From Actinomycetota bacterium (GTDB lineage Bacteria > Actinomycetota > Geothermincolia > Geothermincolales > RBG-13-55-18), in NCBI GenBank assembly GCA_028697145.1, contig JAQVFR010000003.1:3988-67987 (forward strand): a stretch of 64,000 bases of DNA. The letters run 5' to 3'. Numbering within the stretch: position 1 is the first letter of the stretch; every line of letters starts with the position of its first letter. Both the position numbers and the translations under genes were made by a program. The notes beneath the pieces are model-generated. The model saw nothing but the letters and a program-made list of their open reading frames with translations. It did no database searches and had not been told where the DNA came from. Positions 12,538 to 43,884 of the stretch are shown here, one piece after another.

Positions 12538-13146
12538 ATGGCGAAGAAGCGGACTGCGCCCAGGACGGAGAAAGGCATAAACACGCGGCAGGCGATTTTC
12601 GATACCGCCATCGCCCTGTTCGCGAAGCGGGGCTATGACAAGGTCACCATCGACGACATCTGCGACAAGGTCGGGGTCACCAAGGGCGCCTTCTACAACT
12701 ATTTCGAGTCCAAGGACCAGATCATCCTGGAGGAGTTCATGCGCATGGACGATCACTACGTCAAGGTCGCGCATGACATAGCGGACTTAAAGAGCAGCGC
12801 GGAGAAACTGCGCGTGTTCAACCGCGAAGCGGTCAAGCTCATGGCCGACCTCGGAGTCACCATGATGAAGGTGGTCTATCACTCCCAGATCGCTCCGAAC
12901 ATGCGCAGACCCTATCTCATGGACGGCAGGCGCTCCCTCTATAAGATCACGAACGAGCTTATAAAGGAGGGCCAGGAGAAGGGAGAGATCCGCGACGACA
13001 TCGCCAGCGAGGAGATGGCGGTCATGCTCATCAACTGCTTCCGCGGCCAGATCTATCACTGGTGCCTGGCAAACGGCTCCTTCGACCTGGTGGGCACCTG
13101 CGACACGCTTTTCGACCTCATAATGGATCGCCTCACGCCGCGCTAG
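12538..13146 (+). CDS. TetR/AcrR-family transcriptional regulator
   Basis: N-terminal helix-turn-helix AIFDTAIALFAKRGYDKVTIDDICDKVGVTKGAFYNYF. The first ATG after the divergent intergenic region is at 12538. Confidence 0.85.
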   Translation: MAKKRTAPRTEKGINTRQAIFDTAIALFAKRGYDKVTIDDICDKVGVTKGAFYNYFESKDQIILEEFMRMDDHYVKVAHDIADLKSSAEKLRVFNREAVKLMADLGVTMMKVVYHSQIAPNMRRPYLMDGRRSLYKITNELIKEGQEKGEIRDDIASEEMAVMLINCFRGQIYHWCLANGSFDLVGTCDTLFDLIMDRLTPR

Positions 13147-13308
13147 ACGCGTCGTCCGGCCTCGAGGCGGCTTATGCGGTGACCCCGCGATCGTCTCTGC
13201 AGCCCGCTTCGGCGCTCGATGCTCCATGCGGTTAAAGTGGCGGCTCTACCGTGTCGATTAATACCAGAGCAAGCGATAACTTATATTCTGGACAGGGGAG
13301 TCTGCAAC

Positions 13309-28508: not shown

Positions 28509-30608
28509 TTACCGCGTACGCGCCATCCTCAGCAGCCCATAGGAAGCGATGAAAGCGCCTGTCAGGATCAATAACCCTATCATCAGCAGCAGGTAGCTGA
28601 CCTCGAAGCCGGTTACCGGCAAGGTCTGCCCGCTTTCGATCTGGGCGGGAGGAACGACCACCTCCCCTGCCACCTGCACGTTGTTGAAGAAATCGACTAC
28701 CTTCTCCTCCCCGGCGGAGAGGCTGAAGGAAACCGAGACGGGCGCGGTCGCCACGTATCCATCGCCCACGATCTCCTCGACGGTGTAGTCGCCCGCCTTG
28801 AGACCCGTGAAGGCGTAGGAACCGTCGGCCCCGCTCACTGTGGTGGCGATGATATCGCCCTCGGCGTCGCGCAGGTTGATAGCAACGCCGGCCAGGCCGG
28901 CCTCACCCTCGTCGAACGCGCCGTTGGCGTTGAGGTCGAGCCACTTGGTGCCGAGCACCGAGGCGTATTGGGCATTAAGGAAATCGACACGCTTCTCCTC
29001 GCCCGCTCCCAGCATCACTCCGATCTGTGCGGCGCTGGTGGCGTAGTAGCCTTCCGGCACCTCCTCCATCACCATGTACTGGCCATCCAGCAGGGCCTCG
29101 AAGACGAAGTAACCATTGGCGTCGGTCACTCTCTCCTCGGAGACACCCATGCCCTCGAGGACTATGGTCACGCCCGCGAGCGCGGACTCTCCGTCCTGGC
29201 GGATACCGTCCGCATTGGCATCCAGCCACTTGTACCCGTAGATGCTGGAGAGCCTCTTGTTCATGAAGACGTAGTGCTCAGCGTCACCGTCCTCGAGCAC
29301 GATGTCATGCTCGGTCCCGGTGACGGACACCCAGCCTTCGGGCACTACCTCATAGAGGTGGTATTCACCGGGTGTGATCCATCCGAAGTCGAACAAGCCG
29401 TTCTCGTCGCTGAAGGCTTCGGCGTAGAAACCCTCGCCTTCGAGCACGAACTTGACTCCCGCGACAGGCTCCTGGGTGATGAAGTCGATCTTCTCGCCGG
29501 TTATGCGGCCTCTAGGATCGGTGACCACGATCTCCACGTCCACGTCATCCTCGAGGTCTCCGATCTTGGCCTTGTTGTTGAGGATATAGACCCCGGCTTC
29601 CTCGGCGGTCAGGTCCTTCTCGATGACGATGGTGAACGGGGCCTCCGCCAGGTCCAGCATCCAGGGACCGGTCAGGGAGCCTGCGTCCGCGCCGTTGATG
29701 GTGGTCGAGGTTATCTCGTAACTCAGTCCCGTTGCGGGATCTATTGTCTCTATATCCTCCAGCATCACCTCGGTGGAACCTCCACCAGCGGGCTTCGCGA
29801 AGTCCTGGCGATAATGGAATTTCCAGTCCTGCATGCCCGGCTTCGGGGGGTCGGGCTTGTTGCTGATGGTGATCTCGATGAGGTTGCTCATGGAGGTCAC
29901 GCTGGCCAACGGCACAGGCAGGGTGAATGTACCAGAGTAGGAATAGACGTGGGGTCCACCCGTGGGTATGGCGTTATCCCCCATGGGAACCGTAGTGGTT
30001 ATGTTGGAGGTCGCCGCGAGCCAGGCAGGTCCGCCCGCCTTGTACCAGACAGTGTCGGAGACCGCGATCACGTCAGCGGCCCATTCGCCCGTGTTCTGCA
30101 CGAAGATATTACCCTCGATGTTATATGAGTTCGAGAGCTCGGCATCCACCTCTATGGTGAAGTTGACCTGCTTGGTCTCTCCCGCCTTCATCTCTATGTA
30201 GGACTCGGAAGCCGTCTTCTCCAGGCTTATCTCGGGCCCGGAGGCGGTGACCAGGTCAACGTCCTTGGATATATCAAGGCTGGTGACCTCCCAGGGGTCC
30301 TGCTGGACCATTACCATGGCCTCCGACTGCTCCTGGGCCGCCTTTTCTTCGACTATGGCCTGCTCTTCGACGGCCGCTTTCTCCTCAAGGGCTGTAGCCT
30401 CTTCCTCGGCGATGGTCTCTTCGTCGGCGATTGCCTCCTCTTCCGCCTCAGCCCCCTCTGCGATGACTACCGCCTCCGATGTCGAAGCCTTCTTCTCTCG
30501 GGAGGCTCCCGCATCGGAAGCGGAGGCAGGAACGAAGGGGAAAGCCAGCAGCAGCGCAATGGCCACTACCAGCATCATGCTGAGTAGCGTTCTTATTCTT
30601 TCGTTCAT
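28509..30608 (-). CDS. LPXTG-anchored cell-surface protein with Cna-B/SdrD-B-type repeat domains
   Basis: Signal peptide; repeated D.N.NG..D.GE.GLAGV.I modules; C-terminal LPVTG followed by a hydrophobic segment and an RMARTR tail. Confidence 0.8.
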   Translation of the reverse strand: MNERIRTLLSMMLVVAIALLLAFPFVPASASDAGASREKKASTSEAVVIAEGAEAEEEAIADEETIAEEEATALEEKAAVEEQAIVEEKAAQEQSEAMVMVQQDPWEVTSLDISKDVDLVTASGPEISLEKTASESYIEMKAGETKQVNFTIEVDAELSNSYNIEGNIFVQNTGEWAADVIAVSDTVWYKAGGPAWLAATSNITTTVPMGDNAIPTGGPHVYSYSGTFTLPVPLASVTSMSNLIEITISNKPDPPKPGMQDWKFHYRQDFAKPAGGGSTEVMLEDIETIDPATGLSYEITSTTINGADAGSLTGPWMLDLAEAPFTIVIEKDLTAEEAGVYILNNKAKIGDLEDDVDVEIVVTDPRGRITGEKIDFITQEPVAGVKFVLEGEGFYAEAFSDENGLFDFGWITPGEYHLYEVVPEGWVSVTGTEHDIVLEDGDAEHYVFMNKRLSSIYGYKWLDANADGIRQDGESALAGVTIVLEGMGVSEERVTDANGYFVFEALLDGQYMVMEEVPEGYYATSAAQIGVMLGAGEEKRVDFLNAQYASVLGTKWLDLNANGAFDEGEAGLAGVAINLRDAEGDIIATTVSGADGSYAFTGLKAGDYTVEEIVGDGYVATAPVSVSFSLSAGEEKVVDFFNNVQVAGEVVVPPAQIESGQTLPVTGFEVSYLLLMIGLLILTGAFIASYGLLRMARTR

Positions 30609-30653
30609 TTTAATCCCTCCTTTTCTCTTTCCAGTTGGTGAATCCGGTCAATT

Positions 30654-30687
30654 AAAAAACGGCCTCTTTGTTTCGAAAAGAGGCCGG
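30654..30687 (-). terminator. Rho-independent terminator (minus strand)
   Basis: 9-bp stem cggcctctt/aagaggccg followed on the minus strand by TTTTTT. Confidence 0.6.
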
Positions 30688-30927
30688 TTTCACTATTAGC
30701 TCAGAACGTTATTAGTGACCATCTCATAAAACGTTCGTCATCGCTTCCTCTTAGACTGATCTAAACCTAGTGCTTTCATCTATCTAGTAAGTCCATCCTT
30801 AAGATAAAGCACGGACTCGTGCCCTTCTATGATTCAGATCAGGCAACTTTGATCATGAGAACGGCAGTTGGACAGCGGCAGTCTCGAGGCGTATCCGGGG
30901 CGGCGCGAACCTTCTGCTCCGTAATGC

Positions 30928-31170
30928 TCAGCCACCTCGGGTACGCTTTTCATGCCTCTTCGTCCTTGTCCAGACGATCAGCACGATCGATATAAAGAGA
31001 AGTACGGATGCGGCCAGCCAGCCGATAATGCCCGCCGTGAGTAAGGCATCGAGGTTGGCGGAACTGCCTACTATCGTGCAGACCAGGGCCAGAACGAGCG
31101 CGAGAAGCGCCATGATCAACATGATCCTTGCGACGGTTTTCATCCCTGCTCCCCCGTCCTTATCCGGCAA
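30928..31170 (-). CDS. Small hypothetical membrane protein
   Basis: 80-aa ORF with two hydrophobic helices and a basic C-terminus. It lies in a relatively AT-rich stretch between the two surface-protein genes. Confidence 0.3.
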   Translation of the reverse strand: MPDKDGGAGMKTVARIMLIMALLALVLALVCTIVGSSANLDALLTAGIIGWLAASVLLFISIVLIVWTRTKRHEKRTRGG

Positions 31171-31560
31171 CCGAGGTAAAAAGACGATCGGGGCAGACCG
31201 GTCAGATCATAACTTCCGCGGCTCAAAGCCCCCACCCTCTCATCACCTCGCTTAATAGGCACCAAGTGTTTTTGTCCCTTTACGGTGCTGATTGATACCT
31301 GCTGTTGATTTTAGCAGAGAGCCCGGTGGGGAATGCCATTAAGGCCGTGGCCTGCATCTATCCGCGTTCTTCAAAAAGATGTTTCGCCTCGTCATGTATG
31401 GGGAAACACGATATAACGATATATATACGGTCCTGTATAGACAAAGGAAAAATATGTTATAATACGGTTGCTTGCACAATAGTTATATATCAAGGGATGC
31501 TGGGATCCGCGTTCTCGACATGGTCACCTGGGGACGCGGGGAGCTAAATGGTGAAACCGG

Positions 31561-31590
31561 CCCGATCGCAAGAGTGGTCGGGTTTTTTTA
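31561..31590 (+). terminator. Stem-loop plus T-tract, plus strand (terminator/attenuator of a possible leader or sRNA)
   Basis: cccgatcg-caagag-tggtcggg followed by TTTTTTTA. Upstream are TATAAT at about 31456 and a TTGCAC hexamer nearby. Confidence 0.4.
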
Positions 31591-31871
31591 TACACCGGTA
31601 CGGCTGACAAAAAGGGAGAGAGGGATAGGGCCAAGAGAGAACGGCTGAGACCGGAGAATGGGCAGTTTTCCCGGTTGCGGCCAGAGTTCATCCGGCGTAG
31701 ATGCACGGGGCAATGCTGCTGAAACGGCACGATCTCGACTATCTCATCGATGGCCTGAGCCTCACCTTTTTTATCCGTGCCTGGCGGGAGGGTGTCTTTC
31801 CCGCGTAATAGCGGGAATGACGCTGTTCACGCTGAGTAACCGACTGCATGAAAAGAAAGGGAGGTGAGATC

Positions 31872-34289
31872 TTGGAAGGCCTCAAAAAATGGATCGCGCT
31901 CCTCGCCACCGTAACTATGTTGCTGCTTGCTCTGATGTCTGGACTCATCTCGGCAGCGCCGTCGAAGGAATGGAAAGAAGACAAGGAGGAGCAATCGGAT
32001 ATAGTCGAGGATAAGACCGATGAAGAGGGTCTTGGAGGCGAGGACACGGTCGCTGGCCCAAGCGAGGAAAAGAACACCGTAGATGCAGGTGAGGCACCGG
32101 AAGCCCCCGACTCCGGCAAAGATGTGGCGGACACTGGGGCTGGAGGAAGCGAGGAATTGCCTCCCGCTGCACTCCTGGCCGCATGCGAACCCACGATGTC
32201 GACGATGGCGTCGGTGACACCGACACTGGTCGATCCCTGGGCATCGGGTGATGCGAAGCCCGAGTGCGTATTGGCTGCCACGATACTCGGGGTAAGCCCC
32301 GCCGATGAAGCCTATAAGGTTGATGCTGCCGCCCCCAACGGCACGTACACGAGTAACGGCAACACCATCACCATCTCCAACAGCACCGGCAAGGTGTTCG
32401 ACTGGGCGTCCGTGTACCCCGTGCAGTGCGTGATCGTGAAGGCGGGAACCGCCGCATACCTGTTCTACTACCCTGGTGGAGCTTACGGCGATACCGGCCT
32501 CTATGCACCGTACAACAAAGATATAAGTCACGTCACTTTCTGCTTCAACGTGCCTGTCCTGGGTTCCATCTGCGGCACCAAGTGGGAGGATCATAAGGAA
32601 GGCGCACCCGTCGACGGTGTGACCATCATCCTCCTCGACGCTACCGGCAATGAAGTAGCAAGGACCGTAACCGCGAATGGAGGCAAGTACTGCTTCAACG
32701 ATATCCCGCTGGGCGAATATACGGTGAGGGAACTCCTGGACCCCGGGTGGTATGCGAAGAGCCCTGCCAGTGGAGAGTGGACGGTCATCCTGAGCGAAAG
32801 CGGAAGCGGTATAGTAACCGCGGGAATCCTGTGCTGTCCGCCTCCCCCGCCTCCGCCGCCCTGCGTGACTGATGTGGACTTCATCAATGCCCGATACGGT
32901 TCCATCACCGGCCTCAAGTTCGAGGACATGAACGCGGACGCAGACAAGGATGCCGAGGATACGCCCTGGGCTGGGATCACCATCCAGCTCAAGCAGGGCG
33001 CTACGGTGGTCGCCACCACCGTGACCGATGCGAACGGCAGGTTCACCTTCTCGAGCGTCATGCCGGGGACCTACGACGTGGTCGAGGTCCTGGGAGCCGG
33101 TATCTACACCAGCACCTCGCTGATCATCTCCGGCGTGGAGGTTGCCTCCGGGCAAGCGGTGGTCCTGGACGAGACGCCCTTCCTCAACTACGAGGAGGGC
33201 TCCATCTCGGGCTACAAGTACCGTGACCTCGACGCCGACGGCGAGCTGGACCCCGGCGAGCCCGGATTCGCGGGCGTGACCATCAAGCTCTACGATGCGG
33301 ACGATGACCTGATCGACACCACGGTGACCGACGCAAACGGCAAGTTCGTCTTCATCGGCGTCGTGCCGGGGACCTACTCCATAGCAGAGGTGCTGGGCGC
33401 GGGGGTCCTCTCCAAGAGACTCACCACCATCACCGGCGTGGTGGTGGTATCGGGCGAGGAGACGGTGCTCGAGCAGAAGTACTTCCTCAACTACGAGGAG
33501 GGCTCCATCACCGGCCTCAAGTTCGAGGACATGAACGCGGACGGGGATAAGGACGCAGGGGATGCGCCCTGGGCCGGGATCACCATCCAGCTCAAGCAGG
33601 GCGCTACGGTTGTCGCCACCACCGTGACCGACGCGAACGGCAGGTTCCTCTTCACCGGCGTCGAGCCGGGGACCTACGACGTGGTCGAGGTCCTGGGTGC
33701 CGGTATCTACACCAGCACCTCGCTGATCATCTCCGGCGTGGAGGTTGCCTCCGGGCAGGCGGTGGTCCTGGACGAGACCCCCTTTCTCAACTACGAGGAG
33801 GGATCCATCTCGGGCTACAAGTACCGTGACCTCGACGCGGACGGCGAGCTCGACGAAGCAGATACACCGTGGGACGGGAACTCTACTCCCATCGCAGTCG
33901 AGCTGTGGTCGGGCGGTTCGAAGATCGAAGAAACCATAATAAACAACGAGCATGGTTTCTATCTCTTCGCCGATCTTGAACCCGGCGAGTACACGGTCAA
34001 AGAAGCCGAGCCCTTCCCGGAGGGCGTTGAAACGGCGATGGACGATACCTCGTTCACAGTCGTCATCGAGTCCGGCGAGCACCTCGTTGTCGCCCCGGAG
34101 CAGTACTTCCTCAACTACATCCTGGAAGTCGCTCCTGTAATCATCGAGCCTGAGGTTGCGCCCCAGGTCCCAGGCCAGTTGCCCATGACGGGCTGGAACC
34201 TGCTGCCATGGGTCCTTGCCGCCGGGTTGCTCGCGCTCCTCGGATTGATAACCCTGATGCTCGGAGTGATACAGCTCCGCAGGAACTGA
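31872..34289 (+). CDS. LPXTG-anchored cell-surface protein with Cna-B/SdrD-B-type repeats and a poly-proline linker
   Basis: RBS AGGGAGGTGA then TTG at 31872 (an alternative ATG is at 31848). Signal peptide; CCPPPPPPPPC linker; four repeats of NYEEGSI(T/S)G.K(F/Y).D..AD...D...W.GITI.L; C-terminal LPMTG plus TM helix plus RRN. Confidence 0.8.
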   Translation: MEGLKKWIALLATVTMLLLALMSGLISAAPSKEWKEDKEEQSDIVEDKTDEEGLGGEDTVAGPSEEKNTVDAGEAPEAPDSGKDVADTGAGGSEELPPAALLAACEPTMSTMASVTPTLVDPWASGDAKPECVLAATILGVSPADEAYKVDAAAPNGTYTSNGNTITISNSTGKVFDWASVYPVQCVIVKAGTAAYLFYYPGGAYGDTGLYAPYNKDISHVTFCFNVPVLGSICGTKWEDHKEGAPVDGVTIILLDATGNEVARTVTANGGKYCFNDIPLGEYTVRELLDPGWYAKSPASGEWTVILSESGSGIVTAGILCCPPPPPPPPCVTDVDFINARYGSITGLKFEDMNADADKDAEDTPWAGITIQLKQGATVVATTVTDANGRFTFSSVMPGTYDVVEVLGAGIYTSTSLIISGVEVASGQAVVLDETPFLNYEEGSISGYKYRDLDADGELDPGEPGFAGVTIKLYDADDDLIDTTVTDANGKFVFIGVVPGTYSIAEVLGAGVLSKRLTTITGVVVVSGEETVLEQKYFLNYEEGSITGLKFEDMNADGDKDAGDAPWAGITIQLKQGATVVATTVTDANGRFLFTGVEPGTYDVVEVLGAGIYTSTSLIISGVEVASGQAVVLDETPFLNYEEGSISGYKYRDLDADGELDEADTPWDGNSTPIAVELWSGGSKIEETIINNEHGFYLFADLEPGEYTVKEAEPFPEGVETAMDDTSFTVVIESGEHLVVAPEQYFLNYILEVAPVIIEPEVAPQVPGQLPMTGWNLLPWVLAAGLLALLGLITLMLGVIQLRRN

Positions 34290-34382: not shown

Positions 34383-35675
34383 TCAGCTTATCTCGCGGAT
34401 GCGCTCGTACAGCTCGTTGCGGTGAAACTGGTCGAAGTCGTAATAGCCGCGCACGACGTCGAGCCTTGAGAGTTGCGCTCCACCCTCCCATAGCTGAAGC
34501 GTCTTCGCGTCCCTCCAGTATTTCTCCACGTAGTAATCGGTCACGTAACCATACGAGCCCATGAGCTCCATGGCGCGGTTGGTGACGTTGATCGCCGCGT
34601 CGCAGCAAAAGACCTTGGCGGCCGATGCCCTGGAGAGCATGTGCACGGATGCGCCGTCACCATACACCTCGGGGCGGTCATATAAATAAGCGGCGTTGAC
34701 GTAATTGTCCCTTCCCGCCTGTATGCCCATGGCGATATCGGCAAGCATGGTGGCGCAGACGGTATGCTGCCGGATGGGCTTTCCCGCCGCTATCCTGTCG
34801 GTGGTAAAGGCAAGGACCTCGTCCAGGGTCCCCTGGGCCATACCGATGGCCAGCCCCGCGGAGACGATGCGCGCGAAGGCCTGGTTGTCCCACAGCAACT
34901 CCGCGTCCCAGCCCGGCCCGGCGGCCCGCCATCCCTCCGGCACGCGCACTCCCTTGAGCTCGAAACCGCCCTGTCTGCTGCCCCTGAGCCCTTCCTTGTC
35001 CTCGAACCCCAGGAACGTAAACCCTTGCGTCGGGACCTCCACGTAGACCAGGGCGATCCCTTCGTCGCCCAGGCTCTGATCCGTGCTCGCGACCACGCAA
35101 TATGCGCCCGCAAGGCCCGCGTTGACCGACCATACCTTGGTGCCGTCCATTACCCACTGCCCGTCGCGCAAGGCGGCGGCACAGGTTATCCCGCTACCCA
35201 TGAGGTCGGCGTTCTCGATATCGCTGCCCCCTTGTGGCTCGGTGGCTGCGAAGCACCCCAGGCATAGTTCATCCTCCTGTACGAAGCGGGGTGCAAAATG
35301 CTCCAGCACCTCACGGTTGTCAGTCTTTATCGCCGGTCGCATGGCCAGAATGCCGCCCATCAGGGAGGTAAAGAGGGCGGCATCTCCCCTTCCCATCTCC
35401 TCCGCCAGCAAGGCCGTGGTCAAGGCCGAGGACAGGCCCATGCCGCCATATTCCTCCGGCAGGAACCCTCCCTGCAGCCCCAGGGGCAACATCTTCTTCA
35501 GCGTTTCCTCCACCAGCCCGTAATCCGAGCGTGTGCTCTCGTCGAGCTCCCTACGCACCGGCATGATCTGCTCGTCCACGAAATCCCGCGTCGAGCTCAG
35601 AAGGAGCTTGTCCGAGGGACTTAGAAGTTCCTGGACGAACCTGTTCTCCTTGCGTTCAATGGATACCTGTGCCAT
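34383..35675 (-). CDS. Acyl-CoA dehydrogenase family protein (tandem paralogue A)
   Basis: ACAD-like throughout (CFAATEPQGGSD, YGYVTDYYVEKYWRDAK). About 45% identical by eye to 35749..37044. Confidence 0.75.
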   Translation of the reverse strand: MAQVSIERKENRFVQELLSPSDKLLLSSTRDFVDEQIMPVRRELDESTRSDYGLVEETLKKMLPLGLQGGFLPEEYGGMGLSSALTTALLAEEMGRGDAALFTSLMGGILAMRPAIKTDNREVLEHFAPRFVQEDELCLGCFAATEPQGGSDIENADLMGSGITCAAALRDGQWVMDGTKVWSVNAGLAGAYCVVASTDQSLGDEGIALVYVEVPTQGFTFLGFEDKEGLRGSRQGGFELKGVRVPEGWRAAGPGWDAELLWDNQAFARIVSAGLAIGMAQGTLDEVLAFTTDRIAAGKPIRQHTVCATMLADIAMGIQAGRDNYVNAAYLYDRPEVYGDGASVHMLSRASAAKVFCCDAAINVTNRAMELMGSYGYVTDYYVEKYWRDAKTLQLWEGGAQLSRLDVVRGYYDFDQFHRNELYERIREIS

Positions 35676-35748
35676 GTCCTCTATCCTCCTTGCCGGCTCA
35701 GCCGGCGGACGACCTTTTCTGCTTCACGCGCTCCGCCTCCCTCTGTCT

Positions 35749-37044
35749 TCATTTCCTTCGCATCTCCTGCATCTTTTCATAGAGATCATTCTCGTAGAAC
35801 TGGTTGTAGTCATAGTAGCCGCGGGTGACGTCCATCTTCCCCAGCTGTACTCCCCCCTCCCACAGCTGGACGATCTTGTTGTCGCGCCAGTACTTCTCTA
35901 CGTTATAGTCGGTGGCGTAACCGTAATTGCCCATGAGCTCCATGGCCTGGTTGGTAGCCTTCACCGCCATATCGCAACAATAGACCTTGGCGACCGTGGA
36001 CCTCGACAGCATGTACTTCGAATGCCTCGGCCCGTAGGTCTCCGGGTGGTCGTACATGTAGGCGGCGTTGACATATGAGTCCCGTCCCACCTGGATGCCT
36101 ATGGCGATGTCCGCGAGGATGTTCGCGGCCACGGTGTGCTGGCGTATGGGCTTTCCCGCAACCTTGCGGTCGCGCGTGAAGGCCAGTGCCTCGTCGAAGG
36201 CGCCCTGGGCGATGCCCGCCGCCCACGCCGCACTAAAGAGGCGGGCAAAGACCAGGTTGTCGTGCAGCAGCTCCGCGTCTTTTCCGGGTCCCGCGGCGCG
36301 GTACTCCAGGGGTACGCGCACGTCCTCGAAATAGAAGTCACCCTCGTGGCTGCCGCGGAAACCGGCCTTGTCCTCGAACCTGCCAAAGCTGTATCCCTCT
36401 ATAGGGACAGGCACGTAGATGAGGGCGATACCGTCGTCGCCCAGGGACGGGTCTGTGTTGCACACCACGCAATATACATCGGACTCCCCCGAGTTCGTCG
36501 GCCATACCTTGGCGCCGTTGATCACCCATTCGTCACCGTCCAGCACGGCGCGGGTGTGTATGCCCTTTCCCTTCATGTCAAGGTTCTCTATGTTGCAGCC
36601 GCCCGAGGGCTCGGTCATGGCGAAGCAGGCGACGTAAGGCTCACTTCCCAGGAAGCGAGGCGCAAAATCTTCCAGCAGGGTCTTGTTCTCTGCGAACACC
36701 GCCGGGCGGAAAGCCCAGGTGCCGCCTCCGATGGGCGCAATACAGGCGGGCTCGCTCCTGCCGAACTCGTCGAGGATGACGCAGTAGGTTAGCGCCGAGG
36801 TGAGGTTCCAGCCCCCGTATTCCGGCGGAAGGAACGCGCTCTGAAAGCCAAGGTCGACAAGCTTTCTCTGCACCTCCTTCACCAGTTTCCAATCGCCGCG
36901 TGTGCTGGCCTCCATCTCCTTTCGTATGGGCATGATCTCGCGTTCGACGAAGTCCCGGATCAGGTTCACCAGGAACCTGTCCCCGGGGCTTACCAGCTCG
37001 TGCATGAACCTGTTCTCCCTGTTCTCGATGGAAACCTCTTCCAT
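35749..37044 (-). CDS. Acyl-CoA dehydrogenase family protein (tandem paralogue B)
   Basis: Begins MEEVSIENRENRF...; has CFAMTEPSGGCN and YGYATDYNVEKYWRDNK. The RBS AAGGGGGAAGGGAG precedes the ATG at 37044. The ORF-track upstream extension is not used. Confidence 0.75.
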   Translation of the reverse strand: MEEVSIENRENRFMHELVSPGDRFLVNLIRDFVEREIMPIRKEMEASTRGDWKLVKEVQRKLVDLGFQSAFLPPEYGGWNLTSALTYCVILDEFGRSEPACIAPIGGGTWAFRPAVFAENKTLLEDFAPRFLGSEPYVACFAMTEPSGGCNIENLDMKGKGIHTRAVLDGDEWVINGAKVWPTNSGESDVYCVVCNTDPSLGDDGIALIYVPVPIEGYSFGRFEDKAGFRGSHEGDFYFEDVRVPLEYRAAGPGKDAELLHDNLVFARLFSAAWAAGIAQGAFDEALAFTRDRKVAGKPIRQHTVAANILADIAIGIQVGRDSYVNAAYMYDHPETYGPRHSKYMLSRSTVAKVYCCDMAVKATNQAMELMGNYGYATDYNVEKYWRDNKIVQLWEGGVQLGKMDVTRGYYDYNQFYENDLYEKMQEMRRK

Positions 37045-37149
37045 ACTCCCTTCCCCCTTTTCGCATGAGCGATAAACAGAACCCCTCCTGTTCCGTGAGA
37101 AGCCTTTTTCGACCGGACCGCCGATGAGACCTGACATGCCGCGAGGCCG

Positions 37150-37379: not shown

Positions 37380-38465
37380 CTATTCCCCGCCCGGGGCGAG
37401 GATGTAGGAAACCGACGAAGGACCGGTCAGCGACCAGTCCACCCTTGCCCTCTTCCCCTCCATCGCCTCGTAGAAGGCGGCCAGCCTTCCGGCCATGAAG
37501 TACTCGCTGTAAGGGTTCTCCACCCACACCCTGAGGGCGCCGCCCGCGGTGTATTCCACGTCGGTCGCCAGGCCCTGCCCATAGAGCGGAAGCAGGGAGA
37601 GCATCTCCTGCAGCAGGTCGCTCCTGGCCTCCTCCGAAGTGCTGGTCAGACCAAGGTCGTCCAGCATCTTCAGGGTATAGTCCCTCTCCGCGTCTACGAT
37701 GATGGGGATGACCTCGTCTCCGAGTTCCCGTATGAGCTCCCTCGCCACCAGGGAGAGCAGGAATCCCTCCCAGTTGAGCATGCGTATCCCCCTGCGCTTG
37801 TCGATGATAAGGCCTTCGTCCTCCCGCCATTCCATGTGCCTGATGTCCAGGGGAACGCCGCAGCGGGGGCAGCGGTGGTGGCGGTAGTCGCCGTCTTTCA
37901 CCGGTGGGAACTCGACCTCCAAGCGCTCCGACAACTCCGGCTTATACTCTGTCACCTCGACCCTGAGGAGGTACTCCCCGTCTTCCTTCTTCCAGAACGA
38001 GCGCAACGGCTTTCCCTCCAGGGCCTCGAAAGCGCCGACCACGACCGCCGCCATGAGGTCCAGATCCCAGGGATTGCGCATGCGTGCCACCCCGTATTTC
38101 CCGCTGCGGTATTCGACGGTGCGAGAGCTCGCCGTGCCCGTCATCCACGCCATGTTATTAAAGAAGCGCACGGCGCCGTACTTGAAGGGAGGTATGCGCA
38201 GGGTAAGGCGTATGGTCTGCGACTGCAGGAGTGCCGCGATGACGATGCGCACCGAATTACGCTCCGCCTCGTAGAATATGCGGTTAACGGGAAAGCCCAA
38301 CCCCTCAGAGATACGGCGCCTCAGCTCGGGCAGGAGATCGGCCTCGTAGAATACCTGCCTTATGCGTGAATCCCCCCTGCTGACGATGGTGCCGTTGGAC
38401 TCCCAACGGTTCATGCGACTCACCATCTTGGGAACACCGCATACGCTGCAGCGGCTGTAATGCAT
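37380..38465 (-). CDS. Hypothetical protein with an internally duplicated CxxCG-headed domain (paralogue of 13309..14358)
   Basis: Begins MHYSRCSVCGVPK...; second repeat starts HHRCPRCGVPLD... It shares the ...RRGIRMLNWEG...L..EL....IP.IVDAE... core with the first paralogue. The RBS AGGGGGT precedes the ATG at 38465. Confidence 0.6.
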   Translation of the reverse strand: MHYSRCSVCGVPKMVSRMNRWESNGTIVSRGDSRIRQVFYEADLLPELRRRISEGLGFPVNRIFYEAERNSVRIVIAALLQSQTIRLTLRIPPFKYGAVRFFNNMAWMTGTASSRTVEYRSGKYGVARMRNPWDLDLMAAVVVGAFEALEGKPLRSFWKKEDGEYLLRVEVTEYKPELSERLEVEFPPVKDGDYRHHRCPRCGVPLDIRHMEWREDEGLIIDKRRGIRMLNWEGFLLSLVARELIRELGDEVIPIIVDAERDYTLKMLDDLGLTSTSEEARSDLLQEMLSLLPLYGQGLATDVEYTAGGALRVWVENPYSEYFMAGRLAAFYEAMEGKRARVDWSLTGPSSVSYILAPGGE

Positions 38466-38613
38466 GCCTACCCCCTGCAAAAAAGCTAAAGAAGCCGCCC
38501 CTATTCTAAACCAGAGGATTCTTTCATCTCAACCGCATGCTTGTTAAGTTATGGGCCGCACGACCGTTAAGGCGCCATGATCGCTAGGGGTATGACAGAT
38601 CCTGCCATTGCAT

Positions 38614-38641
38614 CTAGAAAAGCCCGCTGCCCCAAGCGGGC
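38614..38641 (-). terminator. Rho-independent terminator after the acyl-CoA ligase gene (minus strand)
   Basis: Stem gcccgct/agcgggc with loop gcccca, followed on the minus strand by TTTTCT. Confidence 0.5.
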
Positions 38642-38725: not shown

Positions 38726-40306
38726 TTATGTCTTGGATTTGCCCTCAAACTCCCGCCGCAACTCCCGCTTGAGAACCTTACCGCTAGCCGTCATTGGCAG
38801 CGCCGGCCGGACATAAACCTTCTTGGGGACTTTGTACCCGGCCATGTTCTTTTTGCAGAAAGCGATGATCTCTTCCGGGGTTACCTCCACATCCGGTTTG
38901 GGGACGACGATCGCCGTCACAAGCTCCATCCAGTAAGGATCGGGAACCCCGATGACCGCCGCCATGGCCAGCTTCGGGTGCTGGAGTAGCGTTCCTTCTA
39001 CTTCCTGGGAGGAGACGTTTTCTCCGCCCGTCTTTATCATGTCCTTTTTCCGGTCGACAAAATAGAACCAGCCGTCTTCGTCCATATAGCCTAGATCCCC
39101 GGTATGCAGCCAGCCGTTGGCTAATGCTGCCGCTGTAAGATCTTGTTTCTTCCAGTAACCCTTCATCACTGCTGCAGACCGGATAACCAATTCTCCCACC
39201 TGTCCAACCGGTACCTCACGATCATTGACGTCGAAAACCCTTACCGCCACGCCCGTATCGGGGATACCGATAGCGTTCCGTTTCTGATCGAATGCTTCCG
39301 GGCTGGAAGTCGTTCCCACAGGGCTGCTCTCCGTCTGTCCCCAGTAATTCCGCCACTGGGTGTCCGGATTGATCCCCTTCCAGCGCTCTATGACCACATT
39401 CGGGATGACGGCACCAAAGGAAACGAATTTCTTCAATGAAGACAGATCGTACTCGTCGAACCCCGGGATAGAGGGAATGGCGGCATAGAGGGTGGGCGGA
39501 TACACCCAGTAGGTTATCTTTTCATCCTGCGTCACCTTCAGGGTTTGTAATGGATCCGGGGCATAGGTGATTACCGCCCGTGCTCCGGTGGCCAGCACTC
39601 CCAAGAGGACGGTGTTGCCAGCGACATGAAACATCGGGATGTCGATGATAAAGGCGTCATCGCGTGTGAAGTTGGCATCCGGAATGAGGTGAAGGAGCGA
39701 CATGTAGTAATTGAGATGAGTGGTCATGACGCCCTTGGGAAAACTCTCCGTTCCGGTAGTATAGATAAGGGTCGCCACGTCGTCGGAATCGATGATGACC
39801 TCCGGCTCCGTTGCCGGATACGCGCCGTTGAAAAAATCGCCGACATCTATCCAGCCATCCGGCTTTGGCTTCTTGCCGAAATTGAGCCAGCCGAAATGCT
39901 CGATGCCCTTTAGCCCATCTTTCACCGAGAGCACGTTTTCCGTGAGCATATCCTCCACGAAAAAGGCCTTGGGCTCGGCATCGCCGATGATATAACTTAT
40001 TTCCTCGCCCTTGAGCATGAAATTCAGCGGAACCGTGATCGCCCCGAGCTTGGCCAAGCCGAAACAGCAATAGAGATAATCCATACAGTTGTGGGTCATA
40101 AAGGCAACCCGGTCTCCACGCTTGATCCCCAGTTCGGCAAAGGCGTTGGCCGCCATGCAGCTCTTCTCGTTAAGCACCCTGAAGCTGATGCGCTCTTCTC
40201 CATAGATGAATACGGTTCTTTCCCGGAAACGCGCCGCCGACCGGCTGACCAGATCGCCTATGACCGCTCGTCTCAAAAGGTTCTCGTGCAACTCATCCAA
40301 AACCAT
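38726..40306 (-). CDS. AMP-dependent synthetase/ligase (acyl-CoA synthetase), second copy
   Basis: YTTGTESFPKGVMTTH, TGDLGYMDEDGWFYFVDRKKDMIKTGGENV and a C-terminal lid domain. The RBS GGAGGGAGG precedes the ATG at 40306. Confidence 0.85.
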   Translation of the reverse strand: MVLDELHENLLRRAVIGDLVSRSAARFRERTVFIYGEERISFRVLNEKSCMAANAFAELGIKRGDRVAFMTHNCMDYLYCCFGLAKLGAITVPLNFMLKGEEISYIIGDAEPKAFFVEDMLTENVLSVKDGLKGIEHFGWLNFGKKPKPDGWIDVGDFFNGAYPATEPEVIIDSDDVATLIYTTGTESFPKGVMTTHLNYYMSLLHLIPDANFTRDDAFIIDIPMFHVAGNTVLLGVLATGARAVITYAPDPLQTLKVTQDEKITYWVYPPTLYAAIPSIPGFDEYDLSSLKKFVSFGAVIPNVVIERWKGINPDTQWRNYWGQTESSPVGTTSSPEAFDQKRNAIGIPDTGVAVRVFDVNDREVPVGQVGELVIRSAAVMKGYWKKQDLTAAALANGWLHTGDLGYMDEDGWFYFVDRKKDMIKTGGENVSSQEVEGTLLQHPKLAMAAVIGVPDPYWMELVTAIVVPKPDVEVTPEEIIAFCKKNMAGYKVPKKVYVRPALPMTASGKVLKRELRREFEGKSKT

Positions 40307-40434: not shown

Positions 40435-41883
40435 CTAGCCAGTGATTCCGCATAGCCGTCTGGCCGATTCGATGGCCTCCTGCCGGTACGGGGCTTGCTT
40501 AGAGAACTCAAAAAGCTCCATCTTGCAGGCCTGCCCGGATCCCCCGCCGTGCGTAGCGGAGTGCAGTATGGAGCCAAGTCCCCATGAGATATTCTCGATG
40601 AGTCTGACCATGCGAATCCTGTGTTCCGCGGGGACATCGTCCACGCCCTTGAGGAAACGCTCCAGGAAAGGCGCGATCTCGGGGTTGTTCATCTCCTTCT
40701 CGCTCGGGCAGCAGGAAAGGATACCCCCGGTTATGTCCTCGGCCAGCCTGATGAGATCGAAGACGGCGCGCGATGCGTAGTACTTGGCATTATTGGCGAG
40801 CACGGGATCGGATACGTAGCCGCCTCCGGGAAGTTCGTAGCCGCGCATGGCGGCAGCGATCCCGCAGGAATACACGGTTTCAGTGATAGCGATCATGTCC
40901 GCCAGCTTGTCCCGGACGTGGGCGGAATCCTCCAGGCCATTGTAGCGCGCCACGAGTTGAGTCGCGGCCACCAGCACGTCGGCCCATCCCGCCTTGCAGC
41001 CACCCGTGGTGGGACGGTGTGATGAGCCGAAGAGGCCGACCAGTTCCTCGAGGTAATCCACCTCCCCGCAGAGGAATACCCGCTCCCAGGGAACGAAAAC
41101 GTCGTCGAACACAACAACGCATTCGTGCACCCCGTAACGGCTGTTGCCCAGGTCTATATCCGCCCCTTTTTGCCGGCGCTCGTCCTGTGAATGGCGCACC
41201 GATATATGAATCAGCCCCGGCGCGGTGGTGGGTACCGCACAGGCCACAGCGTAATCCTCGGAGCCCCGACGGTGGGTCGTGCAGGGCAACACCAGCTTCT
41301 CGTGCGAGATGGCGGCTCCGGTCTGGTGTAGCTTCGCTCCCCTAAGCACTATACCATCGCCGTTCTTTTTCACCACGCGCAAATACATGTCCGGGTCGGA
41401 TTGATCGCATGCCTTGATCTTACGGCCTCCCTTGGGGTCGGTGATGGCGGGGCAGGCCAAAAGGTCATTCTCCTGCATGTACCTTATCCAGTCGGACACA
41501 TTGCGATGATAGGAGGTGCCATTGTCCGCATCCACCTTCGCGGCGATATACAGCAGGGGCGCGTAGGCGTTCTGGATACAGCGGAAGGAGCACATACCAA
41601 GTTGGCGGTTGCAGTAGCGGGTCACGTTTACTTTGGCCACCAGCTCATCTGCGTTCTGTGGGACGTGTTGGAATATAGGCACCGGCTCCCCGCTAAGATG
41701 GGAGGTTGTGATGACCTTGTCCCTGTATGCGGGTTCGCATGCCAGATCGTAGGTGAAGGCTACCGCCTCGGCGGCGGCCTGCACCGACGGGTGGTCCATG
41801 GCGCTATCGACCTTCCCGCCATCGATGTAGAGCGGCAGTTTCATGTCTCTGACGCTCTGCAGGTACTCTTTCCCCGTTCTCAT
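40435..41883 (-). CDS. 4-hydroxybutyryl-CoA dehydratase/vinylacetyl-CoA delta-isomerase family protein (AbfD-like, FAD/[4Fe-4S])
   Basis: Recalled alignment to Clostridium AbfD covers TDPKGGRKIKACDQSDPDMYLRVVKKNGDGIVLRGAKLHQTG, GADIDLGN...VVFDDVFVPWERVFLCGE and HRPTTGGCKAGWADV. The Cys of CSFRC and the H-x6-C motif are conserved, consistent with the cluster ligands. The ATG at 41883 has GAAGGGAG 8 nt upstream; an alternative start is at 41889. Confidence 0.8.
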   Translation of the reverse strand: MRTGKEYLQSVRDMKLPLYIDGGKVDSAMDHPSVQAAAEAVAFTYDLACEPAYRDKVITTSHLSGEPVPIFQHVPQNADELVAKVNVTRYCNRQLGMCSFRCIQNAYAPLLYIAAKVDADNGTSYHRNVSDWIRYMQENDLLACPAITDPKGGRKIKACDQSDPDMYLRVVKKNGDGIVLRGAKLHQTGAAISHEKLVLPCTTHRRGSEDYAVACAVPTTAPGLIHISVRHSQDERRQKGADIDLGNSRYGVHECVVVFDDVFVPWERVFLCGEVDYLEELVGLFGSSHRPTTGGCKAGWADVLVAATQLVARYNGLEDSAHVRDKLADMIAITETVYSCGIAAAMRGYELPGGGYVSDPVLANNAKYYASRAVFDLIRLAEDITGGILSCCPSEKEMNNPEIAPFLERFLKGVDDVPAEHRIRMVRLIENISWGLGSILHSATHGGGSGQACKMELFEFSKQAPYRQEAIESARRLCGITG

Positions 41884-41931
41884 CGTCATTTGCTCCCTTC
41901 GAATCGATGTTCCTTACCGCTAGCCCCGTCC

Positions 41932-42516
41932 TCACTGCCCCCCCGGCCGTTTTGCGCAAGCCCTGGTAATGAACTCCAGAAAGAGACTCGCGACCTCGTC
42001 TGTTGTCAACGGCCCACTCTTTCTGTACCAAACGGGAAGCCAGTTGCACATGCTCGAGATAATGCGCGCGGTCATGGGCACGTCTATCTCCTCGAATGTG
42101 CCTTCCTCGACCGCCTGCTCGAGGGCAGCCCGCAGTATCCCCTCGTATTCCCGGCTCAATGAGCGGATGCGCGCCCTCTGCCGCGCCGGAAGCTCCTTCT
42201 CCTCCGCGAAAAAGACGCTGGCGAAGTCGCCGTACTCCGAGAACAGGGAGAGGTGCATGCAAAAGAGCTCTGCCAACTTCTCCCTTGCCGTCATCGTGGA
42301 GTTGTCGACCTCGCGTGCCTGGTTGAGTAGCTTGCTGACCGCCTGGTCGCAGATGCTGTAGAGGAGATCATTCTTCGCCTCTATGTAATGGTAGAGCGTG
42401 GGCTTGGAGATTCCCAGTTCGGAGGCGATATCCTCCAGTGTAGTGGAACTGTACCCCTTCCTGCTGAAGAGCGCTGCGGACGTATTTAGGATCTCCCACC
42501 AGCTGGTCTTGGCCAC
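41932..42516 (-). CDS. TetR/AcrR-family transcriptional regulator
   Basis: Helix-turn-helix ALFSRKGYSSTTLEDIASELGISKPTLYHYIEAK. GTG start follows the RBS AAAGGA. Confidence 0.85.
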   Translation of the reverse strand: MAKTSWWEILNTSAALFSRKGYSSTTLEDIASELGISKPTLYHYIEAKNDLLYSICDQAVSKLLNQAREVDNSTMTAREKLAELFCMHLSLFSEYGDFASVFFAEEKELPARQRARIRSLSREYEGILRAALEQAVEEGTFEEIDVPMTARIISSMCNWLPVWYRKSGPLTTDEVASLFLEFITRACAKRPGGQ

Positions 42517-42794
42517 GTCTTGATCCTTTCGTCGACCACATGGGAAACTGATAGCCTTCAGTATAGCACATATCTACTGGCTAGTATATCCTTCATCATT
42601 ATTTAGTTAAAGCAACCATTTGCATTATATACTCTATTTGCAGGGATATTACTATTTTATATAATGGTGTTAATTACCTTATCTACCCTTCAGTATTTAT
42701 AGACGCGCCTTTTCTTCACTGTTTCCAGATAAGCTTCTCTGGCCTGATCCGCAATGAGGTCGGTGATACTCCGAGATTTCATTCATCCTCCAGG

Positions 42795-42958
42795 TTCGCC
42801 GCCTTTACCGGGCTTGTTCCTTCGACTTATGCCTCTGGAGAAAAGATATGCCATGGTTGGATTACCAGGCAGTGCAACAAGTGTCTGGGGTGAGCCTTCA
42901 TCGAGGCGGTGACCCCCGCCGTCTGGATATCACCGTGAAGCATGTTCCTATTACGAGC
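42795..42958 (+). pseudogene. IS110-family transposase C-terminal fragment (frameshifted remnant)
   Basis: Translations read RFAAFTGLVPSTYASGEKI(C)HGWITRQCNKCLG in one frame and then AFIEAVTPAVW in another. This matches the conserved IS110/IS1111 C-terminal block (GLVPS.YSSG....GRITK.GN..LR..L.EAA.) with one frameshift. It lies next to a sharply AT-rich stretch at 42540..42720. Confidence 0.5.
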
Positions 42959-43243
42959 GCATCAAGAGGCGGAAGGGAGCCAGGGACACCAAAGAGCGAC
43001 GGTGAGTAAATTGTCCGAGATAGCACGGTGTGTGGACGGAGGAGTATCCCAATTAGGCGCAATAGAAAGTAAGGGATCGGCCCTCTTAAATTTCTGGGTT
43101 TATTGACCTATGGAGGCGATCCGCAGGCTAGGTGGTCATATGGAAAGCCTACAACCACACTTTAGCCACAATTTCAGCCACAGTGACGATTCGGTGGTCA
43201 GTCTCCCCCATTCCCCTCAGGATAAAACCGCTGGTAAACATGG

Positions 43244-43328
43244 TGGTGCCCGGGGCGGGAGTCGAACCCGCACGAGTTTCCCCGAGGGATTTTAAGTCCC
43301 TTGTGTCTACCGGTTCCACCACCCGGGC
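43244..43328 (-). tRNA. tRNA-Leu (anticodon UAA), type II with long variable arm
   Basis: Minus-strand sequence GCCCGGGTGGTGGAACCGGTAGACACAAGGGACTTAAAATCCCTCGGGGAAACTCGTGCGGGTTCGACTCCCGCCCCGGGCACCA. It has a 7-bp acceptor stem, anticodon loop CUUAAAA, a GGTTCGA T-loop and an encoded CCA. Confidence 0.85.
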
Positions 43329-43488
43329 ACGCCGCTTATAACCTGTGCATGAGGCCTCCCCGCGAAGGCAACCCCATGCTAGCACCGCCTATTTTCAGCG
43401 TCAATCAAAGCTCCCACGCGTGATCGTATCGGTTCGGGGCAGCAGCACGTTACGATGTTCGAGGGGATCAGCGGCGAGGACAGGCGGC

Positions 43489-43884
43489 TCAACCCGCGGA
43501 ACGGTTTGCGCACGTGGTGTTGAGGGCGGAACGGATTACCTTCACTAGCTCGGCGGGCTGGAAAGGCTTGGTGAGATACGATGCTGCCCCCAACCTGAGG
43601 GCTTTTTCGCGTTCCTGGCGCCGGTTGCAGGCGGTGAGGACGACCACGGGTATATCCCGTGTCTCCTCGTCCGACTTGAGCATGCGCAGGACATCGAAGC
43701 CATTCAGTTCGGGCATCATGATGTCCAGGATGATGAGGTCCGGCTTTCCCGCGGTCACACTATCCCTTGTGCTCTCATTCGAGCCAAGGCCGGTGATCCT
43801 GTAACCTTCTACCTCGAGGATTATCTGGAGCAGGCGATGAACGGCGGGCTCGTCGTCGATGACCATGATCTTCTTCTCGCTCAT
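43489..43884 (-). CDS. Single-domain response regulator (CheY-like receiver)
   Basis: IMVIDDEP...DLIILDIMMPELNGFDVLRMLK...PVVVLTA...K. The ATG at 43884 follows the RBS GGGAGAGGG. Confidence 0.8.
   Translation of the reverse strand: MSEKKIMVIDDEPAVHRLLQIILEVEGYRITGLGSNESTRDSVTAGKPDLIILDIMMPELNGFDVLRMLKSDEETRDIPVVVLTACNRRQEREKALRLGAASYLTKPFQPAELVKVIRSALNTTCANRSAG

Follow-up and report, generated by a model that had tools for sequence, protein, structure and literature searches.

Introduction

Among the tRNA attachment (attB) sites used by tyrosine-integrase elements is a class in which crossover falls in the anticodon loop (Williams 2002, summarised in PMC8371274 and PMC4383910). In the standard polarity, the element supplies the 3' part of the gene and the tRNA keeps its promoter. 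Recombinant bacterial tRNA genes keep their own promoter with very few exceptions, and integration into a 5' half is seldom met in bacteria (PMC8371274). In archaea, use of the 5' half is unique to the pTN3-like integrases, and the tRNA is then expressed from the integrase promoter (PMC8371274). The Islander pipeline permits a 5' fragment upstream of an intact gene (PMC4383910). Here, we describe a tRNA-Leu(UAA) gene in a 64-kb stretch of an actinobacterial contig (JAQVFR010000003.1; the whole stretch is hereafter called the window), together with the corresponding locus on other contigs, which are designated by L numbers.

We propose, with a probability of about 0.8, that tRNA-Leu(UAA) is a rearrangement hotspot: the gene serves relatives of this strain as an attachment site, its 3' flank has accumulated DNA, and the AT-rich tract in that flank is the regulatory region of an operon. 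Comparison with a near-identical contig and with sister species revealed three independent structural variants at this tRNA. The locus is a tRNA-linked hotspot of a well-known kind, and the 5'-half integration that we describe is a rare side finding in other contigs. The features of the window itself show tRNA flanks collecting DNA in an uncultured actinobacterial class.

Results

tRNA-Leu(UAA) is occupied by an integrase element in relatives and empty in the window

An earlier note on this DNA had described tRNA-Leu(UAA) as the only tRNA in the window. ARAGORN likewise found this tRNA and no other in the 64 kb, and the gene scored 58.5 bits against Rfam RF00005, where the gathering score is 29. 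Its sequence is identical among the same-species contigs that cover the whole gene, with 0 differences between the window and L013. As the gene is on the minus strand, coordinates fall toward its 3' side. Nearly every bacterium that uses UUA is expected to have a tRNA-Leu(UAA) gene. Being the lone tRNA in 64 kb is uninformative, and the gene here is an ordinary conserved housekeeping tRNA.

On L021, a contig of 127.8 kb from a related species, a complete element occupies the same chromosomal position and is flanked on each side by syntenic host genes. A perfect direct repeat of 44 nt, GTGCCCGGGTGGTGGAACCGGTAGACACAAGGGACTTAAAATCC, delimits it, with copies at 3360-3403 and 11250-11293, 7,890 bp apart. 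The first copy follows directly on the response regulator and a native promoter-like site. The second lies inside the only intact tRNA-Leu(UAA) of L021 (11252-11336), ~120 nt downstream of the integrase stop codon. The matching block in the window (Table 1) consists of 2 nt upstream of the tRNA and tRNA positions 1-42, and thus takes in the 5' end, the anticodon loop and 3 nt of the 3' strand of the stem.

A second occupied site is found on L014. On the response-regulator side, the host flank of L014 follows the window with 99.9% identity between 46914 and 43287, at which point L014 leaves the window inside the tRNA gene after ...ACTTAAAATCC. No tRNA was detected in L014 by ARAGORN. Beyond 43287 follow more than 9 kb of element genes, which end in a tyrosine integrase and are truncated by the contig end. 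They encode a DUF11 protein, an AT-rich 372-aa product, an HK97-type major capsid protein, a CHC2-type primase, an AAA_25 helicase-like protein with a helix-turn-helix (HTH) domain, an Xis-like HTH_17 protein, a 296-aa protein and the integrase. The closest full-length integrase to that of L014 is P0009 on L021, with 72% identity. When the window attB, the L014 attL and the L021 attL and attR were aligned, arms were shared and divergent as expected, and the element-side sequence past the core is similar between L014 and L021. Crossover likely takes place at the anticodon loop, at 43290-43296 of the window.

The site is occupied in L014 and L021, and it is empty in the window, L013, L025, L026 and L037. 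A tblastn search of the window with the integrase gave no match. Allowing up to 3 mismatches, we searched the window with the 3' end and with each half of the tRNA; no meaningful second copy was found, and the direct repeat of the tRNA 3' end contemplated in the earlier note is thus missing from the window. An 18-mer match with 3 mismatches at 22118 was rejected as an att repeat because it is at chance level. Because each tRNA half is present there in one copy, the window has no attL/attR pair and carries an empty attachment site. We suggest that the anticodon stem-loop would be the target of a small tyrosine-integrase element of 8 to >9 kb, as shown in the relatives and inferred for the window. 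Besides a primase and an Xis-like HTH protein, this element carries a helicase-type ATPase (AAA_25) in L014 and, in one case, an HK97-type capsid gene.

PHROGs and PADLOC scans of the cargo of the elements assigned no function, and one capsid-adjacent protein matched an unnamed PHROG. Each element contains one strongly AT-rich gene of 41-43% GC: L014:4889-6007 (372 aa, 6 TTA codons) and L021:8872-9987 (371 aa, 12 TTA codons). The L014 protein had no tblastn match in L021. Neither gene matched PHROGs or PADLOC, and there was no Pfam match (L014 was scanned; for L021 none is on record).

Could L014 be an assembly chimera, so that its species would never host the element and the tRNA would passively adjoin a dead insertion sequence (IS)? 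The 44-nt core exceeds the word sizes common in short-read assemblers, and the join is therefore possibly chimeric. L014 has a single junction, at least 15 species have an identical tRNA 5' half, which invites false joins, and a viral collection searched with the element capsid protein and the 42-nt core gave no match to either. L021, however, has both junctions on one 127.8-kb contig with syntenic host genes on each side, and the sequence past the core on the element side is alike in the two contigs. Several independent assemblies of the species also break at the core, and other occupants are found at the same tRNA in other relatives. We therefore regard a chimeric L014 as unlikely. In at least eight independent assemblies of the species of the window, contigs stop within or just 3' of the tRNA, at 43219-43312, and these breaks fit a mix of occupied and empty alleles.

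[quoted passage not shown] The integrase gene lies upstream of the rebuilt tRNA and is co-directional with it, and the element is located on the upstream side of the intact tRNA. This differs from the standard polarity, as the repeat covers -1 to 42. The attL fragment retains the native promoter-like site beside a dead tRNA fragment, and the interval from the integrase gene to the rebuilt tRNA yielded no consensus promoter. We suggest that the attP of the element carries the tRNA 5' half, so that integration would leave the native promoter with a dead 5' fragment and reconstitute an intact tRNA just downstream of the integrase gene. In the window, the promoter-like site upstream of the tRNA (Table 1) probably acts as the tRNA promoter, and its hexamers, TTGACG and TAGCAT, are also found upstream of attL in L021.

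The arrangement is known but rare. As in the anticodon-loop class of attB sites, the integrase of L014 and L021 adjoins the att site and the identity block stops at the anticodon stem-loop; in L021, integration likewise leaves a regenerated intact tRNA, with the displaced fragment at the far end. Unlike that class, the block spans the 5' half (-1 to 42), with a co-directional integrase upstream and the promoter on the dead fragment. With the pTN3-like integrases of Thermococcales, the two share an attB in the tRNA 5' half and a recombinant tRNA downstream of the integrase, but L021 and L014 are bacterial (Actinomycetota) and the nearest relatives found use the standard polarity.

To place these integrases, metagenome contigs were scanned with an alignment of the integrase and its relatives, which yielded 80 loci. 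A tRNA was located no more than 600 nt downstream of the integrase gene in 39 of the 80; it was convergent, as in the standard arrangement, in 30 loci and co-directional in 8, and one locus had one of each. In the delimited standard loci L073, L097 and L098, whose integrases show 27-33% identity, the repeat starts at tRNA position 33 or 34 and extends to the 3' end. Because the standard repeats start at these positions, we conclude that the integrase family crosses over at the anticodon loop. Nine co-directional loci (7 from the metagenome scan and 2 from Gemmatimonadota) were searched for an upstream copy of the tRNA 5' part with mismatches allowed, and none was present in the available sequence.

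The two Gemmatimonadota loci, on metagenome-assembled genomes (MAGs), encode integrases of ~400 aa (L029:445-1836 and L030:1151-2590) with 26% identity to P0009, directly upstream of and co-directional with a tRNA-Leu(UAA) that has the identical 42-nt 5' half. The identical 5' half in Gemmatimonadota, Deltaproteobacteria and Moranbacteria was considered as a sign of element-borne transfer and rejected, because this half is highly conserved across bacteria. It presumably differs from E. coli leuZ at 3 positions.

At 44-51% identity, the integrases nearest to those of L014 and L021 have the standard polarity and use other tRNAs, with the tRNA, or its 3' end, convergent on the integrase. In L121, the att region across both ends corresponds to the 3' part of a tRNA-Lys(UUU)-like gene, the anticodon being read by inspection; L122 uses tRNA-Met, and L123 ends in the 3' end of a tRNA. 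Because these relatives use the standard polarity, the mirrored polarity is a derived trait, found in a small subclade. The anticodon stem-loop has dyad symmetry, which would let the same core site work with either arm. L121:1-8554 (Logan ERR15087788) is an 8.5-kb contig whose ends overlap by 16 nt, and it is probably a circular or repeat-bounded element. It encodes Phage_rep_O, a DnaB/AAA_25 helicase, a HicA toxin, an HTH_17 protein and the integrase.

These loci provide a delimited bacterial case of 5'-half integration, with attB, attL, attR, a 44-nt core and an integrase whose relatives have the standard polarity. Work on the evolution of att-site polarity may draw on this example, which is also a candidate tool for integrating DNA in this uncultured group.

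The 3' flank holds a decayed IS110 transposase and a three-gene operon

Next to the tRNA 3' end, the earlier note had seen a frameshifted IS110-family transposase fragment at 42795..42958. Its family and decay hold, and its extent is wider. A peptide rebuilt across frames matched Pfam Transposase_20 (PF02371; E 5.5e-10, 39.9 bits, cutoff 21.3) and, in a protein search, IS110-type proteins (E 1.7e-24, up to 57% identity). With two IS110-type proteins as tblastn queries, homology was found at 42735-43040. Three-frame translation showed about three frameshifts and two in-frame stops, and the conserved stretch GLVPSTYASG...ITRQCNK is retained. No transposase-like sequence was found below ~42720 by translation or by tblastn with a fragment that retains the region upstream of Transposase_20; no catalytic-domain model search was made. 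Translations below this point give stop-filled AT-rich sequence. The N-terminal DEDD catalytic part, the 5' two-thirds of the gene, therefore appears to be missing. Compared with intact members of the IS110 family, the window retains the C-terminal Transposase_20 domain in a pseudogene fragment that has no intact reading frame and apparently no DEDD_Tnp_IS110 domain.

Among the loci compared, the remnant occurs in the window and L013 alone. A protein search for an intact IS110 copy gave only other fragments, at no more than 57% identity and in unrelated contexts, and neither a second IS110 copy nor element ends were detected. Of the ~200-bp non-coding spacer between the transposase homology and the tRNA 3' end, positions 43151-43243 are shared with the related species of L032, whose homology stops at 43151; the remainder may belong to the IS remnant as its 3' non-coding part. 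Within 43003-43241, covering remnant and spacer, 11 differences separate L013 from the window, while neighbouring genes differ by ~0.3%. Such a raised density of differences is as expected for unconstrained DNA. A bridge-RNA-like or other structured RNA beside the remnant was sought and rejected: Rfam gave no match (E up to 1), and folding of 43036-43243 on both strands gave z scores of +1.0 and +0.5. A 30-aa open reading frame (ORF) at 42690-42782 on the minus strand, called as a gene in one assembly, has no family match, is antisense to the transposase fragment and was deemed spurious.

Beyond the remnant is an operon that begins with a TetR-family regulator and continues with a dehydratase and an acyl-CoA synthetase (Table 1). 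The regulator matches TetR_N (2.1e-14) and TetR_C_24 (6.5e-30), and its NCBIfam matches are sub-threshold, the best being the SACE_7040 and FadR-like families. Homologues of the dehydratase-like protein at 74-94% identity carry the source name 4-hydroxybutyryl-CoA dehydratase. The synthetase matches an NCBIfam fatty acyl-CoA synthetase subfamily below its cutoff. A paralogous set lies ~30 kb away, at 8803-14358 of the window: an AMP-binding acyl-CoA synthetase (8803-10425; 26% identity to the operon's synthetase), a second TetR_N/TetR_C_24 regulator (12364-13146), and a paralogue (13219-14358; 28.5% identity) of the 361-aa gene described below.

A 4,091-bp segment containing the operon (Table 1) is polymorphic within the species. 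L013 tracks the window through the tRNA and the IS110 remnant to 42673 and then resumes at 38581; the junction has a 2-nt microhomology (AT) and no target duplication. Of the AT-rich tract, 47 bp remain in L013 and include the distal box described below, and the homology of L040, an operon copy from another metagenome, runs to 42701, 29 nt past the L013 breakpoint. For these reasons, we interpret the L013 change as a deletion, and an insertion in the other contigs is less likely. A second gap in L013, at 36127-36196 of the window, and a split gene call (302 + 113 aa) affect the acyl-CoA dehydrogenase at 35749-37137. This gene is one of two tandem acyl-CoA dehydrogenase paralogues (34383-37137) with ~67% nucleotide identity.

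Had the 4,091 bp instead been inserted into an L013-like ancestor, the operon would be a recent gain at a hotspot, where changes are mostly gains. The outgroup species have no operon at this position, and both GC and third-position GC of the segment are below those of its surroundings. The insertion would, however, have had to land precisely next to a pre-existing orphan copy of the distal box, since the 47 bp retained by L013 hold this box, which is part of the operon regulatory region in L040 and L039. The junction, with 2-nt microhomology and no target duplication, also argues against it. A recent insertion thus seems improbable.

The segment has a GC content of 56.6%, against 62.2% for the window, and a third-position GC of 0.69-0.79, against mostly 0.77-0.90 elsewhere. 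Because the outgroups have no operon block at this position and the block has this lower composition, it was acquired or relocated here at some earlier time. The segment thus combines two marks of a horizontally acquired island, deviant composition and presence/absence polymorphism. It contains no mobility genes or flanking repeats, its contents being the TetR, dehydratase and synthetase genes. The IS110 fragment ends exactly at the start of the operon block; for this reason, the 5' part of the transposase was probably lost when the block arrived or through a deletion associated with it. We propose that an IS110 element inserted in the 3' flank, died and lost its 5' two-thirds. A complete operon would then have been set against the remnant, with its own AT-rich promoter/operator region and terminator. 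Finally, L013 would have deleted 4,091 bp of the operon by illegitimate recombination.

Several points weigh against the hotspot reading. The element is absent from the window, and use of the site in this strain is inferred. L014 shows the left junction only, and its join of host flank and element could be a chimera with a related host. The contig breaks at the tRNA could arise merely from tRNA sequence common to related species. In the 3' flank, there are no flanking repeats and no recombinase, and hence no visible mechanism for the arrival of the operon; parsimony is what sets the proposed order of events, with the IS first, then the operon and the L013 deletion last. No intact IS110 copy was found that would define the element ends or the target preference.

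The earlier note had seen in the 3' flank signatures of an integration hotspot or a decayed mobile element. The dead IS110 copy and the three structural variants agree with this, and comparison with relatives showed that presence or absence of both the element and the operon differs among genomes. The integrase element, though, belongs to the upstream side rather than the 3' flank and is absent from the window.

The AT-rich tract reads as the regulatory region of the operon

A sharply AT-rich segment had been reported at 42540..42720, and the composition is as described: 100-nt windows across 42550-42749 have 26-36% GC, and the tract at 42540-42710 has 26-33%, compared with 55-69% in flanking genes and a window mean of 62.2%. 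Several features connect this tract to the operon. Two promoter-like sites within it are aimed at the TetR gene (Table 1), and a ribosome-binding site precedes the GTG start. In L040, an operon copy 90% identical to that of the window matches it from 42701 to 38719, AT-rich tract included, between flanks that are both unrelated to those of the window. In Candidatus Solincola tengchongensis (L039), the TetR and dehydratase genes are on a contig other than that of the tRNA, behind an AT-rich tract with both boxes.

The two boxes, which are partly palindromic and stand ~110 nt apart upstream of the TetR gene, are the proximal TACTAGCCAGTAGATA and the distal TACTGAAGGGTAGATA. They share TACTN5GTAGAWA (TACT.....GTAGA.A), which is invariant in the window, L040 and L039 amid otherwise divergent sequence. 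The motif occurs exactly twice in the window, where 0.01 occurrences are expected. These boxes are probable TetR operators, and TACTN5GTAGAWA is a candidate TetR operator motif for a conserved operon of the 4-hydroxybutyryl-CoA dehydratase type. Because the tract is conserved with the operon elsewhere, contains invariant boxes and has promoter-like hexamers directed toward TetR, we read it as the operon's own promoter/operator region. As in TetR-repressed catabolic operons with an AT-rich promoter/operator region, a TetR_N + TetR_C_24 regulator comes first and CoA-dependent enzymes follow. Here, by contrast, the operon occupies different chromosomal positions in different relatives, and the operators are candidates.

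The AT-rich DNA had also been taken for horizontally acquired, foreign sequence. If it were a scar left by foreign DNA, such as an att site or the end of an island or an IS, it would have no regulatory function. The sharp shift in composition (26-33% against 62% GC), the adjoining truncated IS110 fragment and a strain-level breakpoint inside the tract are in keeping with that idea. However, the tract moves with the TetR operon, being conserved in two other lineages at other positions (with other flanks in L040, and elsewhere in the genome in L039, with the same two boxes). Its promoter-like sites and the ribosome-binding site are directed at the TetR gene, and neither tRNA half resembles the tract. 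We consider a foreign scar very unlikely.

TTA codons are rare and occur in ordinary genes

We counted leucine codons in 48 ORFs called by length and third-position GC (18,641 codons). TTA is the rarest leucine codon in the window, with 21 occurrences among 1,690 leucine codons (1.13 per 1000 codons), and TTG occurs 153 times (8.21 per 1000). By wobble rules, a UAA anticodon may read UUG too. TTA is found in 17 of the 48 ORFs, and in 10 of the 48 when codons in the first 25 positions, which are possibly upstream of the true start, are left out. Among the genes with TTA are those for a histidine kinase, an acyl-CoA dehydrogenase, a ferredoxin-nitroreductase, a second TetR regulator and a membrane protein. 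In the operon, the TetR and dehydratase genes have 0 TTA codons each and the synthetase gene has 2.

The integrative elements have 4-5 times more TTA than their hosts (5.5 vs 1.1 and 13.9 vs 3.9 per 1000), an excess that results from their lower GC (54%). It is conceivable, though we think it doubtful, that a small subclade of elements in Geothermincolia-like actinobacteria, which carry the tRNA 5' half, cut the host's probably sole UUA decoder from its promoter, set it behind their own integrase gene and so control codon supply for their own TTA-richer genes. The orphaned and probably strong tRNA promoter might then read into genes at the left end of the element, some of them rich in TTA, such as the 372-aa gene of L014 with its 6 TTA codons. 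If this were true, the dependence of the rebuilt tRNA on the element would be a mobile-element version of the idea of rare-codon control.

The locus had been likened to bldA of Streptomyces, with tRNA abundance gating the expression of adjacent foreign genes. In S. coelicolor, 147 genes contain TTA genome-wide, and the bldA tRNA is unnecessary for growth (PMC2000904). The two situations share the tRNA species, a GC-rich actinobacterial host and TTA as the rarest leucine codon, but TTA here is, by our estimate, roughly ten times more widespread by share of genes, and no TTA-bearing regulator stands next to the tRNA of the window. Control of adjacent foreign genes by a limiting tRNA for a very rare codon is highly improbable: the rarity of TTA, the TTA-richness of the elements that target the tRNA and the one exact tRNA 5'-half match per related genome speak for it, whereas 17 of 48 ORFs, ordinary genes included, contain TTA as against 147 genes in the whole S. 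coelicolor genome, the adjacent operon has next to none of it, the excess in the elements is explained by their GC content, and a tRNA that also reads UUG would be general-purpose. A rare-codon regulatory role is neither needed nor supported.

The locus across the clade and other features of the window

The sequences of the TetR and response-regulator proteins recur unchanged on contigs of the MAGs GCA_028718105.1 and GCA_034678765.1 and of many metagenome assemblies, and these contigs are 99.4-99.97% identical to the window across common stretches. An exact-match scan with the tRNA 5' half, taking one genome per species, returned 15 loci, of which 10 are Actinomycetota MAGs; these include three Candidatus Solincola species, class Geothermincolia. 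Each related genome has a single exact match, and the coding similarity of these related loci to the window is 65-90%. The source organism is an uncultured relative of Candidatus Solincola, class Geothermincolia.

The gene order of the clade is MaoC, DUF501, Ppx/GppA, response regulator, tRNA-Leu(UAA), 361-aa gene and acyl-CoA dehydrogenase, and it is seen wholly or partly in L025, L026, L037 and, element aside, L021. The response regulator is a conserved upstream neighbour of the tRNA in L021, L024, L025, L027, L028, L032, L033, L035 and L037. The 361-aa gene directly follows the tRNA, within a few hundred bases, in L025, L026, L037 and L021. In the window, ~4.6 kb separate the tRNA flank from the promoter-like site of this gene, and they consist of the IS110 remnant and the three-gene operon. 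The 361-aa protein has no NCBIfam match and no Pfam family on record for the called gene; it begins with a CxxC motif (MHYSRCSVCG).

Table 1. Coordinates of features at the tRNA-Leu(UAA) locus (window positions, unless a contig is named)
Feature	Position	Strand	Basis or remark
tRNA-Leu, anticodon TAA	43244-43328	-	ARAGORN; 85 nt, CCA encoded
Unoccupied attB identity block	43287..43330	-	Identical to the 44-nt repeat bounding the L021 element; single copy in the window
L021 element	L021:3360-11336		7.9 kb; complete; not in the window
L014 element	L014:3587-12595		>9 kb; not in the window
Promoter-like site of the tRNA (TTGACG, 17 nt, TAGCAT)	43376..43404	-	Consensus scan; TG precedes the second hexamer
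Stand-alone response-regulator receiver gene	43489..43884	-	Pfam Response_reg
Non-coding spacer, ~200 bp, tRNA 3' end to end of transposase homology	43041..43243	.	No Rfam match
IS110-family transposase remnant, C-terminal Transposase_20 region only	~42720..43040	+	Translation, Pfam, tblastn
AT-rich regulatory region of the TetR operon (predicted)	42517..42701	-	Composition, promoter scan, L040 homology, three-lineage alignment
Distal conserved box	42680..42695	-	Candidate second operator; kept in L013
Promoter-like sites in the AT-rich tract, aimed at the TetR gene	42610..42583, 42673..42646	-	Promoter scan
Proximal conserved box	42571..42586	-	TACT-N4-AGTA palindrome; candidate TetR operator
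4,091-bp segment	38582..42672	.	BLAST; present in the window and most same-species contigs, absent from L013
TetR-family regulator, first operon gene	41932..42516	-	Pfam TetR_N + TetR_C_24
4-Hydroxybutyryl-CoA dehydratase / HpaB family protein	40435..41889	-	Pfam HpaB_N + HpaB
Acyl-CoA synthetase (AMP-binding)	38726..40306	-	Pfam
Terminator-like hairpin after the acyl-CoA synthetase gene	38622-38641		Terminator scan
Promoter-like site of the 361-aa gene (TTGAGA-18-TAGAAT)	38503-38532		Same hexamers in L021
361-aa gene, conserved	37380..38465	-	Synteny; usual direct downstream neighbour of the tRNA in relatives

Other occupants are found beside the tRNA in the clade. In Candidatus Solincola sediminis (L027, MELM01000006.1), a different integrase of 377 aa (L027:3080-4261) is in the standard position, convergent on tRNA-Leu(UAA) and overlapping its 3' end. 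Because this integrase converges on the 3' end, different elements of the clade use tRNA-Leu(UAA) from both sides. An 802-aa ORF sits between the response regulator and the tRNA in L035, an ORF of ~950-1040 aa is convergent with the tRNA in L024 and L032, and small inserted genes lie beside the tRNA in L033 and L028. The tRNA site is variable across the clade.

Elsewhere in the window, a 2-kb stretch at 30001-32000 has 53-54% GC and contains the lowest 1-kb windows bar the tRNA region. A large gene for a surface protein with SdrD_B/SpaA domains contains internal repeats of 70-97% identity at 32800-33900.

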